DNA of 64,000 bases. It comes from Girardia tigrina. Its lineage: Eukaryota. Positions within the stretch are counted from its first letter, which is position 1; every line of letters starts with the position of its first letter. The DNA lies in the NCBI GenBank assembly GCA_001938485.1, contig MQRK01216436.1:1-64000 (forward strand). Direction: 5' to 3'. This document shows, piece after piece, positions 5,568 to 62,953 of this stretch. The position numbers and the translations under genes are program-made. The notes under the pieces are model-generated. The model did no database searches. It saw only the letters and a program-made list of their open reading frames with translations, and was not told where the DNA came from.

Positions 5568-7190
5568 GAAAATATATGTCGAATTATTCGAGAAATCAAA
5601 TTTGTTTTGAAAAAAGTTAAGGAGGAAAATCCTTGTAGAGGACTATGGAGTTTTGAGGATTGTAAGGACGGCATCATATGGTGTGATGCCAGTTCAATAG
5701 CCATTGGGGCAGCATTGAAAGTTAAAGGAAATATTATAGAAGACGCATCGTGGTTAAAGAAAACTGACGATTCTAGGCACATAAACGTAGCAAAACTAGA
5801 AGCAGTTGTAAAAGGTCGAAATTTGTCTATTAAATGGGGACTAACGAATGTTGTAGTAAAATCAGATAAAAAATCAGTAGTTTCTTGGATAACTGAAACA
5901 CTATCAGAGCAAACTAAATTACACACAAAAGGCTCTTCCGTGCTTTTGATAAAGCGCTGATTGTCAATGATTAAGGAATTGTGTCAGGAATACGAAATAA
6001 TTTTGAAAATTGAGTTTGTTCATAGTGAAGACAACAAGGCTGATGAACTGACAAGAATACCAAAACAATTAAAACGAAGCAGTTACCTTTTGCCTGTAAC
6101 AGATGACCTATTCAAACTACAGAAATTTCATGAAAAATGTCACTTAGGTGCAAAGAGAATGCGATATCTGTGCGATAAGTTGGAAATAAATGTGTCAAAT
6201 ACGGATATAAAGGATTTGATCTCGAAGTGTCAAAGTTGCCAATCTATTGATCCGGTGNCAATAAAATGAGAAACTGGCAAATTAGCCGTCAATGAAAACT
6301 GGACAAGACTTGTAGCGGATGTCACAAAATTTGATCAACGAAAATTCTTAAGTATCATTGATTGGGGACACTCTCAATTTGCTGAATGGAAACTAATCAA
6401 GTCTGAGGACGTCAAATCGATTGTTACAGAGTTTTCAAATTTGATCTGCGAGCGTGGATCTCCCAAAGAGTTGATTATTGACAATTATACGACATTTCAT
6501 TCATCCGAATTCAGCAAGTTGATGGATAAGTGAAATGTACATGTTTTATATTGAGCTATTAATCGACAAAATTGCGACGGAATAATAGAGATTAATTATA
6601 AGACAATCAAGAAAATCGCGTCTAGATCGAATATGAGTATCATGGGAGCCTTATGGTGGTATAACAATATACCGCCCGACGGAAAGGAGACACCTATTTC
6701 AGTACTTTACAAGTACGTTCCAGTCGGTTTGGAGATAATTGAAAGAATTGAAAAGGAGCCGGTTTACAATAAGGTAAAGATAGACTTTGTAGAGCAACAG
6801 TTAGTCTAGGTAAAGCCTGAAAATAATATGCCATGTACAAAGCAATGGGCAAGAGCCGTTTTCGTTAGGAAATTATATCAAATAAAATGCTTAATAAATT
6901 GTGATGGTTTTTGCGGTTCACGGTATATAGCAGATATTCGACCAAGACAATCAGATCTTCCGCGAAACTCTTACTCGGATTACATGTTGGAAAATAACAA
7001 AGAATCAGCTTTGAGTGTCAGTCAAAATGAATCGGGAATCAGCAACAGACCCTGAAGAGAAAGACGAAAGCCGAATTATTTATCGAGTATTTAGTGGATA
7101 TAGAATCTTGTGACGAAGAATCTGGGGGGGGGAGTGTTACACGTTAAATTTATTTATTAAATGAAATATTTAGTAAGAGAAAATATGGAT

Positions 7191-56503: not shown

Positions 56504-57640
56504 TAAATTATTTATTTTCAAAATTGATGATTTTTAGAAATTCAATTATCTGATGATTTTGAGCAATCCAATTATTTGATGATTTTGTCAGAAATTGTTA
56601 ATTGCGGATTTGTCAGTTGGATTTAATTTTGAAATTAAATTCCCATTTTTTACAATTTTCCATTCTGGGAAGTGTTATATGATTTTTATACGATTTTTTT
56701 ATAATAATAATACTATTTTTATAATTACAATAATTTAAAAATACAATAATAATAATAAATTTTTATTAAAAGGTAAACCTTTGGCGAACTTTTCCGCCAA
56801 AATCAGGAGTACCCTCATAATGAATGGGTCCCTGAGGAGAAAGGAGAAACTCGCCGAAAAGGAATATAATAATATTAATTCCAATAGTAAAAATAATTAT
56901 GATAATGATAAAATTAATGACAATAATTATAATAACAATTATACTAATAATAATAATAATTAAAATGATTAATATTAATAATAGTTATAAAGATATTAAT
57001 TATAGCAACATTATTGATATTATTTTATTTTTTTATATTTTAAAAGTTATTTCCATGATATTTTAATATTAAAAGTTAATTATTAGTTTAGGGAACCCCA
57101 ACACAAATGCAGATCTTGAACATGGTGAATTTATAGACTTCTATGGGAGAACTTATATAGGGCTGATTAAACAGGAAAATAGTTGGATTATTGTGACTAG
57201 GTTCGAGAACACCACTTGGAGTTGTTATAATTCCGTACTCTCTGGATGTCGACGAACTAATAATGCTGTTGAAGGATGGCATTCTCGTTTTCAAATCCAA
57301 TCGCATCCTGCCACTATTTGGAAATTTCTGGCTTTTATTAGAAAAGATGAGGCGGACAACAAAGTTTTGATTGAGTAATTGTTTGGAGGGCACAGAAAGA
57401 TTAGGCATCCCATAAAACGCGTTTATCTTATTAATAATTCGCGAATCTATGAACTTGTCCGATCATATAATGAATTTAAAAATACTGGTATGACAAAGGT
57501 CTACTTGCATAGAATAGGAAGATTGCTGAAGAACAACTTTGTTTATATTCCAGAGTAAAATGATTACCAACCTAGTTGAATTTTATTAAAAATATTGATT
57601 TTATGTTTAATAAATTTTTGTGTAATAAATTTTACGTGTA
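55490..57640 (+). mobile_element. Degenerate Mutator (MULE) element with a subterminal tandem array at 55500-55810
   Basis: FLYWCH-like TRRGKPLLIDGEFQY...YWLC....C at 55880-56005; RTNNAVEGWH and HPATIWKFL at 57250-57335. Confidence 0.8.
56017..57103. mobile_element. Solo LTR inserted in the MULE transposase
   Basis: TGTTGGTG...CCCCAACA termini; TSD CAAA. Confidence 0.8.
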
Positions 57641-58139
57641 ATTTCTAGGTACCAAAATTAGCGACGACATACCCTGTATATCGATAGTGTATAGATAATG
57701 AAATAAAGAAATATTATGAGTTGTCGTTAATCTCAGAAAGCGACTGGGGGCTCAGAGCTCACAAAAATATTGTCAAGAGAGGGGAACGCGAAATATATTT
57801 ATAAAATTGTGTGTTGTTTGTGTAAAAAAATTTAAAATAATTAAATTTTTGTTAATGTTGATATCTGGAAAATACCAGTTTTTGCGTTGTTTAAATAATA
57901 TTCTCGTCGCGATTTACAACGATCTGTCGGTTTGGTTAATCGAGATAGCCATCGATTGTTGCGCGATCCCACTTTACTCCGCGTGTTGAAATTGTCAAAA
58001 AAGAGCCCTTTTCTATTGTTTACTGGTACGTCGAGCAGCTTCCGTTATTGACGGTTCTCAATATTTACTCAAAAACAAAATAATCTCGAACAATTTTAAA
58101 TCTCAAAATCAAATTTTCACAATTTTATTCAATATTATT

Positions 58140-58664
58140 TAAACAACCCAAAAACTGGAATTTGGTCGGCTGACAGTCAATGAATCCGATCGTTATCTCA
58201 TGTCCCTTGCTCGTTTGCCCTGATATCAGGTTCTGTGACTTGATTCCTGAATCAATTCTGTCGACTTGTAAATTAGCGCGCGAATTGAAACACATAAATC
58301 TCGAGGGAGTTTCGATCGTGCACGAATCGATCGATTTGATTTGTACTACTTACCGCAACTGGAGATTCTCAACTTGTCTCACTGTGTCTCATTGACTGAT
58401 CAATCGATTCTGTCGATCTCGGAATCGTTGAAGATCATCTCGAAAATCAATCTTGACGGTATTCAGGACATCACGGATTACGGATCGATTAATTTGTGTC
58501 GACGACATTCCGAAAATTTATCGGCGATTTGGATCAATGAATACAAGTTGACAGAAATCGGATTTGCGGCGTTGACCAATTGTCGATCGTTGCCGACTTT
58601 ATCGATCAGATACGTGGAATCACTGTCCGATCAGATCATCCGGTCGTTAGTCTGTGGTCGTTGA
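58140..58664 (+). pseudogene. Cysteine-containing leucine-rich-repeat (FBXL-like) fragment, frameshifted
   Basis: LEILNLSHCVSLTDQSI, INLDGIQDITDYG and LSIRYVESLSD repeats. Confidence 0.7.
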
Positions 58665-58918
58665 CAATTCACATGGCGGTGTTGTTGAAATCATAATATA
58701 TCATAAATAGACAGAAAAGTACAGAAATGTCAAGCCATGCATAACATTCTGAGAGCAGATCGTGATTGCCTCATCTGCCGGTACCGGAGGAGAACCTTAT
58801 TATATGTTTATGTGATTTTTGGTGTATTATAAATATTTATATCAATTTAAAATAATTTTTATATATTAATAAATTAATAGACCTAAATTTGGGACATTCT
58901 CCATCTTCTTTACTGTGT

Positions 58919-59057
58919 CAAGAGAGAGAGGGGATCCCATCTGATCAACAACGATTGATGTTCGTCAACAAACAATTGATGGATGGGACGAACGTTGAAG
59001 AACTACAAAATCCAGAAAGACTCCACATTACAAGTGCTACTCCGACTCCAAGGAGGA
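58919..59057 (+). pseudogene. Ubiquitin residues ~31-76, in frame with the downstream BEL gag
   Basis: QEREGIPSDQQRLMF..KQL / GRTLKNYKIQKDSTLQVLLRLQGG, with one frameshift. Confidence 0.85.
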
Positions 59058-60620
59058 ATGGAGTCGGACGATCTGGAGATGAAATTTTCAAACAGATTTA
59101 GGCGGAAAAGATTTGAAAAAGGAGTCCTCACCAGATTTCCTAATAATCTATTTTATGCTGAGACAAATACAGAGAAAAAAGATGCTAGACGACAGTACGA
59201 GGAGAAATACCTTCAAGTGATAGAAGAACTGTGCTCGGCATAAAATTGGAAAAAGATCAGGTTCAAGAAAAAAGATCTCAAAGATCTAGAGTTGAAATAT
59301 GAGGATATTGCACATTTAATGCAAGCAAGGGAGGATAAAAAGTTGATTAATGCTGCAGGTGTGAGAAATAACAATGGGAACGCAACAGAAAAACGAACTT
59401 TGTCTTGGTGAAGGAAACTTTCGATTCCAACGTTTTCTGGAAACGTGAAGGAATATGAAAGTTGGAGAGCAGCGTTCAAGCATTGCATCAAACAGGCGAG
59501 TGCATCCATGGAGGAAAACTTCTTCACCTGAGGAATTATTTGAGTGGGACAGCCTTGAAACTGATCGAGTTTAGGCTTTGGGATTCCGCCTTCGATAAAG
59601 TGTTGCGACGTTTGAAGGAGCTAGACGGCTGTATCTTTCAGTCTTGGAAGATATAGACAATTTCCGGGCCGTCAAAGAGGAATCATTCCGGGAAATCGAA
59701 AAAAATTGCCAAACTGATCGAAAATGTGGTGGTGATACTGAAGTAGATTAACAAGTAGCCGGAGCTGCATGACGTGGTTCTGTTTCAGACATTGTTGAAG
59801 AAGCTCCCATCAAAGATGTTATTGAAGTACGAAAATGGATTCGCAACCAATTGAAGGAGAGAAGCGTAGAGAAGTTGCACGAGTGGATACAGGAAGAAGC
59901 GAGTTTGAGGAGGGGTGTTCAGGAAACACTATTCTGAGTGAAACCACCTCAAAAAATAGAAAGTGACTTCCTATGTAACCCATGGCAACAACAGTGAATT
60001 GAGATCTAAGAGAGTTGGAGAAAATATGTAAAATGTCTTATGGATCATTCATTGGATAAGTGTGATGATTTCCAAGAGCTGACTGTTGCGGCACTGAGTG
60101 ACATTGTGAAAAAGGAGAAATTGTGCTTCAACTGCCTCAGAGGAAATCATCAAATGAAGGATTGCAGATTCACAAGTTGTGCTCAGTGTGGTAAAAAGCA
60201 TCACTCATTACTTCATTATGACCAAGGAGAAAACTTTGAAAAGAAAACCGATTTAAATTTAATCGCTCCGCTTAGGTGGAGTTAAATGAAATCCTTTGTA
60301 ACGCAAGAGTCTGCAACTATTATTAAAAATGGATAAGTGGCATTAAGGACTGTTGCAGTTAACACAGATGGAAAAGTGTGAAAATTAATGCGCTTCTGGA
60401 CGATGCAAGTACTGGGACGTACATAACAGAAACGGTAGTTAAGGAGGTGGTACTAAATGGAGAGAATCGGAGTCTATCAGTTGGGATCATCGGAGGAACC
60501 ATGCATCTATTAAAAGTAAAGGAAATATAAGTTACTTTAAGCAGCATCCACAAACATTTCCAAAAGAAAATAAATGCGCTTGCAATGACAACCATTGTTG
60601 GTGATATGAAAGATTAGGAC
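59058..60620 (+). mobile_element. Degenerate BEL/Pao gag-protease
   Basis: IPTFSGNVKEYESW...KLLHLRNYLSG.A (DUF1759-like); LCFNCLRGNH..KDC...CAQCGKKHHSLLH; protease ALLDDASTGTYI. Confidence 0.9.
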
Positions 60621-60639
60621 TCGAGAAAATTAGGTTCTC

Positions 60640-60800
60640 TTTCCATCATTTATATCTCAAGTTCCTGGAGCAAAGGAAAAGACTTGAAGAGATTGCAAAG
60701 TGTGCTCGTCAATACGAAATCGCCAGAAAAACCATTTTTATGTAATGACTGTAAAATTGTTCGATATGTTGCACCTTGCTTCAATGATTATCATTCTTCT
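60640..60800 (+). pseudogene. piggyBac C-terminal cysteine-rich domain remnant
   Basis: CKVCS.....KT.F.CNDC.......PCFNDYH after correcting one frameshift. Confidence 0.6.
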
Positions 60801-61159: not shown

Positions 61160-61803
61160 TCGACAACCCAAAAAGAAGCAATAAAAATTAAAGACCACTA
61201 ACAATAAATTAAAAAACTTCAGTTTTTCCAAAAACAAAAATTCGACTATTATTCGCTGAACAGGAGGCCGTGTCTCCATGTTTTGGAAAGAGAACTGTCT
61301 GTCAAGTTATCATTTAAAGCACTCAGAAATTATCCTCGTTGAATTACATCGTCAATGTTTTTCACTATAATTCTTTGAACGTTTAAATTAGAATTAATTT
61401 GAGGAAAAGTTATTGGTGTTCGGGTGACTGTATATTCCGTTTGTGAATTTTGAATATCTTTATCGAATTCAATAAGTGCATACGGTCTCAATGCAATTTC
61501 AAATTTACTTCCATATTTATTATGAAATTCAGCTATAATATCAATCAAAAATGCAAATGCCACATTTTTAGAAAATTCCTTTATAGTTAAGATGATACAA
61601 CAAATTTCTCTATCAATTAAATCATGAAACATATACAGATCACTTTCTATGGAACAAATTGAATAATATAAATTAGTCATTTTATTAAACAATGGTTTCG
61701 CTTGATTTTGATGATTATTTAAACTTTTAATATTTTTATCTTCTTGCATTGAAGACGCTAACACCAGTCCATCGTTTATTTTTAAATTTATCAGCAAGAT
61801 CAT
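61160..61803 (-). pseudogene. SEC22: SEC22-like longin R-SNARE, intronless, with a premature stop after the NIDDVIQRG motif
   Basis: DGLVLASSMQED, QNQAK.LF.K, AFAFL, RPYALIEFD and NVQRIIVKNIDDVIQRG*; degraded TM-like sequence follows. Confidence 0.85.
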
Positions 61804-62953
61804 TTTTAAGTTTACGTGGAATTATTTCACAAATTGCCAAAGATACTGGAGAGCAAAAAAGAACGAAATTTTTATTGTTCTCTATCGAAAACCCCCAACC
61901 GATTGAATACAGACGTATTCTAATTCAAACTCTTTTTAAATTGTTTTTTAAAAGAAATAAAGACAGACGAGAAAGTTATTATTATTTTTTTCCAGACTAA
62001 TTGTGACAAAAATTCACATTTGAACAAAAGCATTCCTCGCACACACACAACACACACACTCAACCAATCAATTATTTACATTCACATATCAAAGTAACAA
62101 TACACACTGCATTCAGACATTCAATAAAAAAAAGAGGCTCACCATTTGTTTTTCTACTCCAATGAAATGACACACATACATTGATCGATTAAATCTCTGG
62201 TGATTACTATTTCTATTACCATTACTCAAATTATTATTACTCAAATTACTATTACTATATATGTGGTGAGAGAAGAACAAATTTGTCAAGTTGAAAAACT
62301 TGTTTATATAAAAGAGAACTTAAGACAGATGAAGAACATGAATAATGTGCCTTTTATAGTTTGATTCAATTTTACAAAAATAAATTTGAAATATTCTTGT
62401 TTTCTTTTTTGTAAATTTTCTTTGTCATTATTGTAGCACAATAGCAAATATCAATGAGCAAATAAAAGTTTAAGTTTGCATTTAGCTGCTTTATATTTAA
62501 ATGTTATTTTTCGATGCAGGCGTTTGATACATCGTTGCTCCATAGTACATGTCTGTACGATGATCTCGGGTGTGGTACAGAAAATATTTAATATACACAT
62601 GAGTATAATTCACTCAAAACGCACACAAACTCTATAATCTGAAAGCGTCACACATTTTACACGAATATTCCGTTTTCATTCTATTGGTTGTAATTCTATA
62701 CAACTCGAATTTATGGATTCGAAACTTATTTTGCCGAGACCCAACGTGGTCGGGAATGAATAACCTGGTAGATCTCAGTTTATTAGTTCAGGAACTAGCT
62801 TTCAGCTCGCCTCCGAGCTCAAGAGCCCACCTCTTGCACTTTGACGCGTGATCGAGACGGGATTCTGCTTCTGTAAATAGACTAAATGTGGAGTTTTTAT
62901 AAGTTGATTATAGTCGAGCTTTATATAATAGTTTGAGCTATAATTATTGTGTA

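Follow-up and report, generated by a model that had tools for sequence, protein, structure and literature searches.

A ubiquitin domain ending in Gly-Gly directly precedes Gag in a clade of BEL/Pao retrotransposons in the genome of Girardia tigrina, and this ubiquitin–Gag junction is genuine and shared across the clade rather than an isolated event. We propose that host deubiquitinases (DUBs) probably cut after the Gly-Gly, freeing Gag from a variable leader captured from host genes.

Structure of the window copy

The window, the whole 64,000-nucleotide stretch that was analysed (contig MQRK01216436.1, assembly GCA_001938485.1), contains a dead, truncated remnant of this BEL/Pao clade with the following features.

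57831..58746, + strand: 5′ LTR remnant that ends in CA, with 57831 a provisional start; matches the LTR copy L129
57887..58726, + strand: captured host-gene fragment lying within the LTR and covering parent residues about 56-311; identity up to 79-80% in tblastn
58750..58759, + strand: decayed primer-binding site (TGGTAGCAGA in other copies); comparison with family copies
58760..58918, + strand: AT-rich leader, joined by a deletion to ubiquitin codon 31; alignment with copy L007
58919..59057, + strand: ubiquitin remnant, residues about 31-76, ending LRLQGG; Pfam, tblastn and alignment
59058..60290, + strand: BEL/Pao Gag with helical N-terminus, DUF1759 region and zinc knuckle, broken; Pfam and tblastn, DUF1759 in family copies
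60384..60663, + strand: aspartic protease stretch where the element is truncated; tblastn to P0121 and end of homology

The junction letters, CTC CAA GGA GGA followed by ATG GAG TCG, bear out the original prediction of a ubiquitin ending LRLQGG that is joined without a linker to the Gag ATG at 59058. In tblastn with the host's own ubiquitin, two ubiquitin-like pieces lie 5′ of Gag; residues 53-76 (58986-59057) share the Gag frame, as had been claimed for all of residues 31-76, but residues ~30-51 (from 58916/58919) lie in another. A frameshift near 58980 splits the domain and leaves only ~25 codons in the Gag frame; PF00240 of Pfam matches one piece at E=2e-4 and the other at 0.055, neither reaching the curated cut-off. 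The Gag–protease expected after the junction was recognised by a zinc knuckle (PF14392, E=0.012, below cut-off) and by a protease stretch at 60384-60635 that matches residues 600-683 of the metagenome protein P0121 in tblastn. Decay of the copy is equally evident: Gag has several stops and frameshifts, homology to other copies stops at 60651-60663, and the RT, integrase and 3′ LTR are absent from the window copy. The ubiquitin N-terminus is missing here as described, but this does not hold for the family; in pairwise alignment with L007, residues 1-30 were lost through a deletion private to the window copy with GTC (3 nt) at both ends, and the same deletion took an Hsp90- or eEF2-like piece, both being present in other copies.

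The LTR copy L129 aligns to window positions 57831-58740 at 83-90%, and the LTR end directly adjoins the primer-binding site, an arrangement shared by other copies of the family. The primer-binding site of those copies, TGGTAGCAGA, presumably matches initiator tRNA-Met; ARAGORN found no tRNA within the 64-kb window. The parent of the LTR-captured fragment, present as an intact 457-codon ORF on another contig (L130), is taken by us to be an F-box/leucine-rich-repeat gene; Pfam LRR matches to the fragment are weak. An inverted 100-bp piece lies within the fragment at 58063-58163, and a 33-bp inverted repeat (57870-57902 / 58131-58163) borders this inverted segment. Elsewhere in the window are an intronless Longin-domain ORF (61330-61821, − strand; PF13774, E=5e-16) and two stretches (57073-57540 and 60690-60800, both + strand) that we take to be DNA-transposase-like remnants with MULE-like and piggyBac-like motifs; Pfam gave no match on either stretch.

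Recurrence of the ubiquitin–Gag junction

The junction was found again throughout the genome. A DNA search with window positions 58860-59260 returned at least 41 matches (40 scored among 184 candidates), including the window's own sequence; the remainder mostly cross the junction, at 78-87% identity. An exact 17-mer spanning the junction occurs at 31 genomic places, against 0 for the reversed control, and proteins from other assemblies share the layout. For sampling independent of ubiquitin, a Gag query from residue 62 onward gave 145 matches, from which 40 further loci were taken; 7 stop short of the Gag start, and a ubiquitin tail lies ahead of Gag in all 33 others.

A Gag match was present in 88 loci. 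After 8 that do not cover the junction and L025, which is truncated inside Gag, were set aside, 79 copies remained, including the window and the duplicate pair L004/L005. All 79, each with an intact Gag start, carry the ubiquitin tail (L080 when read in the adjacent register), and the Gly-Gly is kept in 71 of 79, the remaining 8 each having a private single-base change; as the copies are related, these counts are not independent. Ubiquitin before Gag is thus a trait of a retrotransposon lineage, as had been suggested, and copies without ubiquitin, the case named at the outset as speaking against it, are absent among the copies examined that keep the Gag start. Because families C and D were detected by way of ubiquitin, they are unable to reveal ubiquitin-less copies. 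Identity as a polyubiquitin gene or pseudogene was rejected, since Gag and not a tandem ubiquitin unit follows the window ATG and since two families have Gly-Gly then Ser.

Families and relatives

At least five diverged BEL/Pao families in the genome share the ubiquitin–Gag layout, with these junctions.

Family A: LRLQGG, then M
Family B1: LRIRGG, then M
Family B2: LRLRGG, then M
Family C: LRLCGG, then S
Family D: LRLRGG, then S
L102: a single further type

The Gly-Gly codons vary by family (GGAGGA, GGTGGA, GGCGGT, GGAGGT), and the residue that follows is M, S, I or G, never Pro. Ser follows in families C and D and in P0123 and P0245, so that no Gag start codon is present there; the first Met of families C and D lies >40 residues inside the Gag helices.

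The same layout is found in P0121, an independent metagenome protein of 1709 aa in a single open frame, whose order is Hsp90 piece, ubiquitin, DUF1759, protease (599-651), RT (916-1040), RNase H and integrase (1497-1679), with PF05380 (Peptidase_A17) at 1101-1260. Its Gag is 95% identical to that of family A and is matched by the window Gag, and DUF1759 (PF03564) is found both in P0121 (E=7e-18) and in family copies. P0123 and P0124 (about 42% identical) have a diverged ubiquitin ending in Gly-Gly then Ser and Gly-Gly then Gly, respectively, and Gly-Gly likewise precedes Gag in P0242, P0244, P0245 and P0248, from outside the assembly. Among 121 related proteins, only P0121, P0123 and P0124 carry ubiquitin. 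The initial protein search was dominated by polyubiquitins (at least 120 matches, none informative), and the ESM Atlas gave only DUF1759 clusters, at 0.80, which are uninformative either way on ubiquitin.

A 28-row tree of protease-RT-RNase H (689 columns) placed the 7 ubiquitin-bearing rows in one group with the N-truncated P0138 (SH-aLRT 89.7, bootstrap 90), and a quick 63-row tree gave the ubiquitin-bearing group a support of 84. These trees lend moderate support to a single RT clade for the ubiquitin-bearing elements. LTRs (TG...CA), a primer-binding site and a polypurine tract are present in family copies; common LTR ends were found in L026 (90 nt at 98.9%) and L027 (154 nt at 93.6%), and a full LTR pair was not recovered among the family copies.

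Conservation, selection and fold of the ubiquitin domain

Across 8 representatives, 25-74 of the 76 residues match host ubiquitin, the lowest identity being 33%. G75 and G76 are kept in 8/8, versus 4/8 for K48, 4/8 for K63 and 3/8 for R74, and only K11, V17, K27, L43, L50, G75 and G76 are invariant; the lineages are not independent, and part of the Gly-Gly signal may be general since the internal glycines G10, G35 and G47 are also kept in 7/8. The I44-H68-V70 patch varies and is replaced in most of the diverged families while the Gly-Gly stays. The LRLRGG tail is kept in B2, D and P0245, and R74 is altered in A (Q), C (C), P0123 and P0124.

Pairwise ω for the ubiquitin of family A (27 copies) was 0.27, or 0.21 with single-copy bases masked, with a 95% range below 1; these values show purifying selection as far as sequence pairs can, the pairs not being independent as the copies are related. 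In the same family, ω was 0.37 (0.26 masked) for Gag and 0.67 (0.47 masked) for the Hsp90-derived leader, the range of the latter including 1. For the other ubiquitins, ω was 0.56 (0.35 masked) in B2, 0.35 (0.33 masked, range reaching 1.25) in C and 0.87 (0.78 masked) in B1, which is no different from neutral; the dN/dS of the ubiquitin part, which had been proposed as a check, thus supports selection in family A and not in B1. The B2 domain, at 47% identity, is predicted to adopt a β-grasp fold (pLDDT 89, TM 0.96 to ubiquitin), followed by a low-confidence flexible tail and then the Gag helices.

Upstream leader and captured cargo

The ubiquitin had been predicted to act as a leader; it does stand directly before Gag, but it is not the protein N-terminus, as a host-derived leader precedes it. 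In young copies, a single frame stays open from the end of the LTR across the primer-binding site and a host-derived piece into ubiquitin–Gag. Of 12 Hsp90-type family-A copies, 7 have an AT-rich leader that is free of stops in the ubiquitin frame, where 3-4 stops are expected (chance of openness P0 0.015-0.03 per copy, copies not independent), and in 6 family-A copies the frame is unbroken all the way between primer-binding site and junction. The long upstream open frames of family C are a biased sample, those loci having been chosen for long ORFs. An in-frame ATG at the LTR end is present in 8/8 unbroken copies, a weak observation as there are two ATGs in different frames and two length classes. 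The ubiquitins of A, B1 and B2 have lost Met1, and those of C and D keep it; the ubiquitin is therefore internal and not N-terminal where Met1 is lost and the frame is open upstream.

By Pfam, the upstream cargo includes Hsp90, PRMT, Hsp70, LSM and RPB10-family pieces, and a further piece is presumably eEF2. In-frame cargo was identified at L050 (RNA_pol_N with its Met), L054 (PRMT_C), L063 (LSM) and L067 (HSP70), and P0124 carries zf-TRAF cargo. With the frame open through such varied cargo, Gag would follow 130 to several hundred foreign residues. An intronless 517-codon ORF at L020:4433-5983 (− strand) is, we assume, TRAF-like.

The family-A stretch is partly present in 6 of the 9 runs listed, none with more than 20% of its words. 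Contig X5 of a metatranscriptome (542 nt, with 26 differences) and two contigs of X1 span the junction, which is only a hint that it is transcribed, as DNA carry-over is possible and the leader 5′ of the Hsp90 piece is uncovered.

Renewal of ubiquitin from a host gene

Compared with 34 host ubiquitin units, the family C ubiquitin is closest to unit 1 of one trimer gene. Codons of L050 match this unit at 35/36 positions in the 5′ half and 26/36 in the 3′ half, versus 22% and 39% for the median host unit against family C, and family C differs from trimer unit 1 by dS 0.35-0.50 and dN 0.02-0.05. The codon matches show that, judged by sequence, family C ubiquitin was recently re-copied from a host polyubiquitin gene; since the family C RT is far from the others, this would have happened long after the families split. 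The route was probably template switching onto co-packaged host mRNA, a known route of capture (PMC5131818). Families A and D also match the same trimer gene best, near saturation. A GC3-rich, three-unit host polyubiquitin gene (L039-L041, L043), whose units are mutually diverged (pS 0.62-0.70), is unlike the AT-rich host polyubiquitin loci; host ubiquitin has Ser19.

Proposed mechanism and alternatives

Under the proposed mechanism, the Gag-Pol frame would be organised as leader–ubiquitin–Gly-Gly–Gag, with ubiquitin seen in frame before Gag in every family of the clade sampled. Translation would start in the LTR or leader, and a cotranslational cut after Gly76 would, by established ubiquitin biochemistry, give Gag a clean Met, Ser or Gly N-terminus and insulate it from whatever cargo sits upstream, the ubiquitin itself being renewable by host-gene capture, as seen in one family. 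When a linear fusion carries ubiquitin with a polypeptide on either side, cleavage after Gly76 takes place during translation whatever residue comes next, Pro excepted (PMC3692480). The binding pockets of DUBs demand specific residues at P1-P2 and accept more at P3-P4, though UCH-L3 favours Arg at P3, and non-canonical tails are cut 20-50-fold slower (PMC7477763). Such tolerance fits the fixed Gly-Gly and the variable residue 74 and allows for slower cutting; DUBs may act poorly on the domains that have diverged furthest (33-47% identity). If the mechanism is true, a cleavage site for a host deubiquitinase has served the clade throughout its deep divergence, and the carriage of long host-gene mosaics without loss of Gag would be explained. 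The polyproteins of retroelements are normally cut by a protease that the element itself encodes.

Cleavage might occur for another benefit, a boost to Gag-Pol expression or folding of the kind proposed for ribosomal-protein ubiquitin fusions, with the captured leader a later by-product. We consider this unlikely: it would account equally for Gly-Gly conservation and the fold, it agrees with the Met1 kept in families C and D, and 118 of the 121 related proteins manage without ubiquitin, but the loss of Met1 in A, B1 and B2 under a frame open upstream makes the ubiquitin internal. It is quite improbable that the ubiquitin is a neutral passenger ahead of a Gag that begins at its own ATG, although the junction ATG of families A and B could start Gag on its own, ω is near 1 in B1, and many host fragments were captured, some with ω overlapping 1. 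The Gly-Gly-then-Ser families have no such ATG and no Met until well into the Gag helices, ω is below 1 in family A, and ubiquitin is retained over RT distances of >1.5 changes per site while other cargo turns over.

Recruitment of ESCRT or other ubiquitin readers by a ubiquitin that stays on Gag, raised in the original prediction, is compatible with the kept fold and with the frequent loss of R74, which could slow cleavage. Replacement of I44, H68 and V70 but not of the Gly-Gly in most of the diverged families argues against it, as does the Pol of L018 (one copy checked), which ends at the polypurine tract with no env; uncleaved N-terminal ubiquitin is moreover a degradation signal (PMC9634822), though the ubiquitin here is internal. 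We therefore regard such recruitment as very improbable. A one-off joining of a BEL fragment to a polyubiquitin pseudogene could appeal to Gly-Gly then Met being the natural repeat junction and to the many host polyubiquitin loci, but the 31 exact junctions, the five or more families and the other assemblies have already refuted it, leaving it a probability close to nil. The release of Gag by host DUBs admits a rather unlikely extension, in which the cassette is the key to host-gene shuffling: cargo would be tolerated since it is cut off, and the freed cargo–ubiquitin, with its free Gly-Gly, would be conjugated to host proteins as an element-encoded modifier.

Comparison with known systems

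In the cytopathic pestiviruses BVDV Osloss, CP1 and CP Rit (PMC8310069), host ubiquitin is part of the viral polyprotein and, as here, lies directly before the protein to be released; in cytopathic pestiviruses a host fragment and an N-truncated ubiquitin release NS3, and in CP Rit the host fragment lies ahead of the N-truncated ubiquitin, again as here. Those insertions are sporadic and in an RNA virus, whereas a deep clade of retrotransposons has the arrangement in fixed form here, with its ubiquitin diverged to 33% identity and, in one family at least, replaced by a fresh copy taken from host mRNA. Linear precursors (polyubiquitin, UBA52/RPS27A) likewise join a GG-ended ubiquitin head-to-tail with a partner, and the laboratory ubiquitin reference technique, as here, sets ubiquitin between an upstream and a downstream partner (PMC3692480); in contrast to the linear precursors, the ubiquitin here is internal, often without Met1, diverged and in a mobile element. 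If the mechanism is true, a device familiar from laboratory constructs and sporadic pestivirus mutants would exist in these elements as a stable natural form. The families form a natural mutational series of ubiquitin in which selection has seemingly kept nothing but fold and tail, so that the sequence a linear fusion needs in order to be cleaved can be tested directly.

With BEL/Pao retrotransposons (PMC3118150) the elements share the DUF1759 Gag, the Peptidase_A17 region, the PR-RT-RH-IN order, LTR, PBS and PPT; they differ from other BEL/Pao relatives in carrying ubiquitin, the three carriers among the related proteins falling in the described clade. LTR-mediated retrocopies (Tan et al. 2016, PMC5131818) likewise contain partial host mRNAs acquired by template switching, in multi-gene chimeras, but they are described as non-autonomous, whereas here the cargo is followed by a Gag-Pol frame that is intact, and selection acts on one of the captured domains. 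Ubiquitin is mentioned 0 times in the main text of the BEL/Pao survey (PMC3118150), in the available text of PMC5131818 and in PMC13524379. No description of ubiquitin–Gag retrotransposons was found in literature titles and the openings of abstracts. The present analysis adds the clade-wide retention, the Gly-Gly-then-Ser junctions, the selection on ubiquitin and the recent re-capture.

Additional features of family copies

In L026, the 90-nt LTR end is shared between 2088-2177 and 6688-6777, and the upstream cargo differs between the two LTRs. The palindrome GTTGCATGGCAAC occurs within the LTR of L018 near position 650 and in the 3′ LTR of L023, and presumably resembles an RFX X-box. The family C Gag of L049 contains CCCH zinc fingers (PF00642, E=1.5e-10) besides DUF1759.
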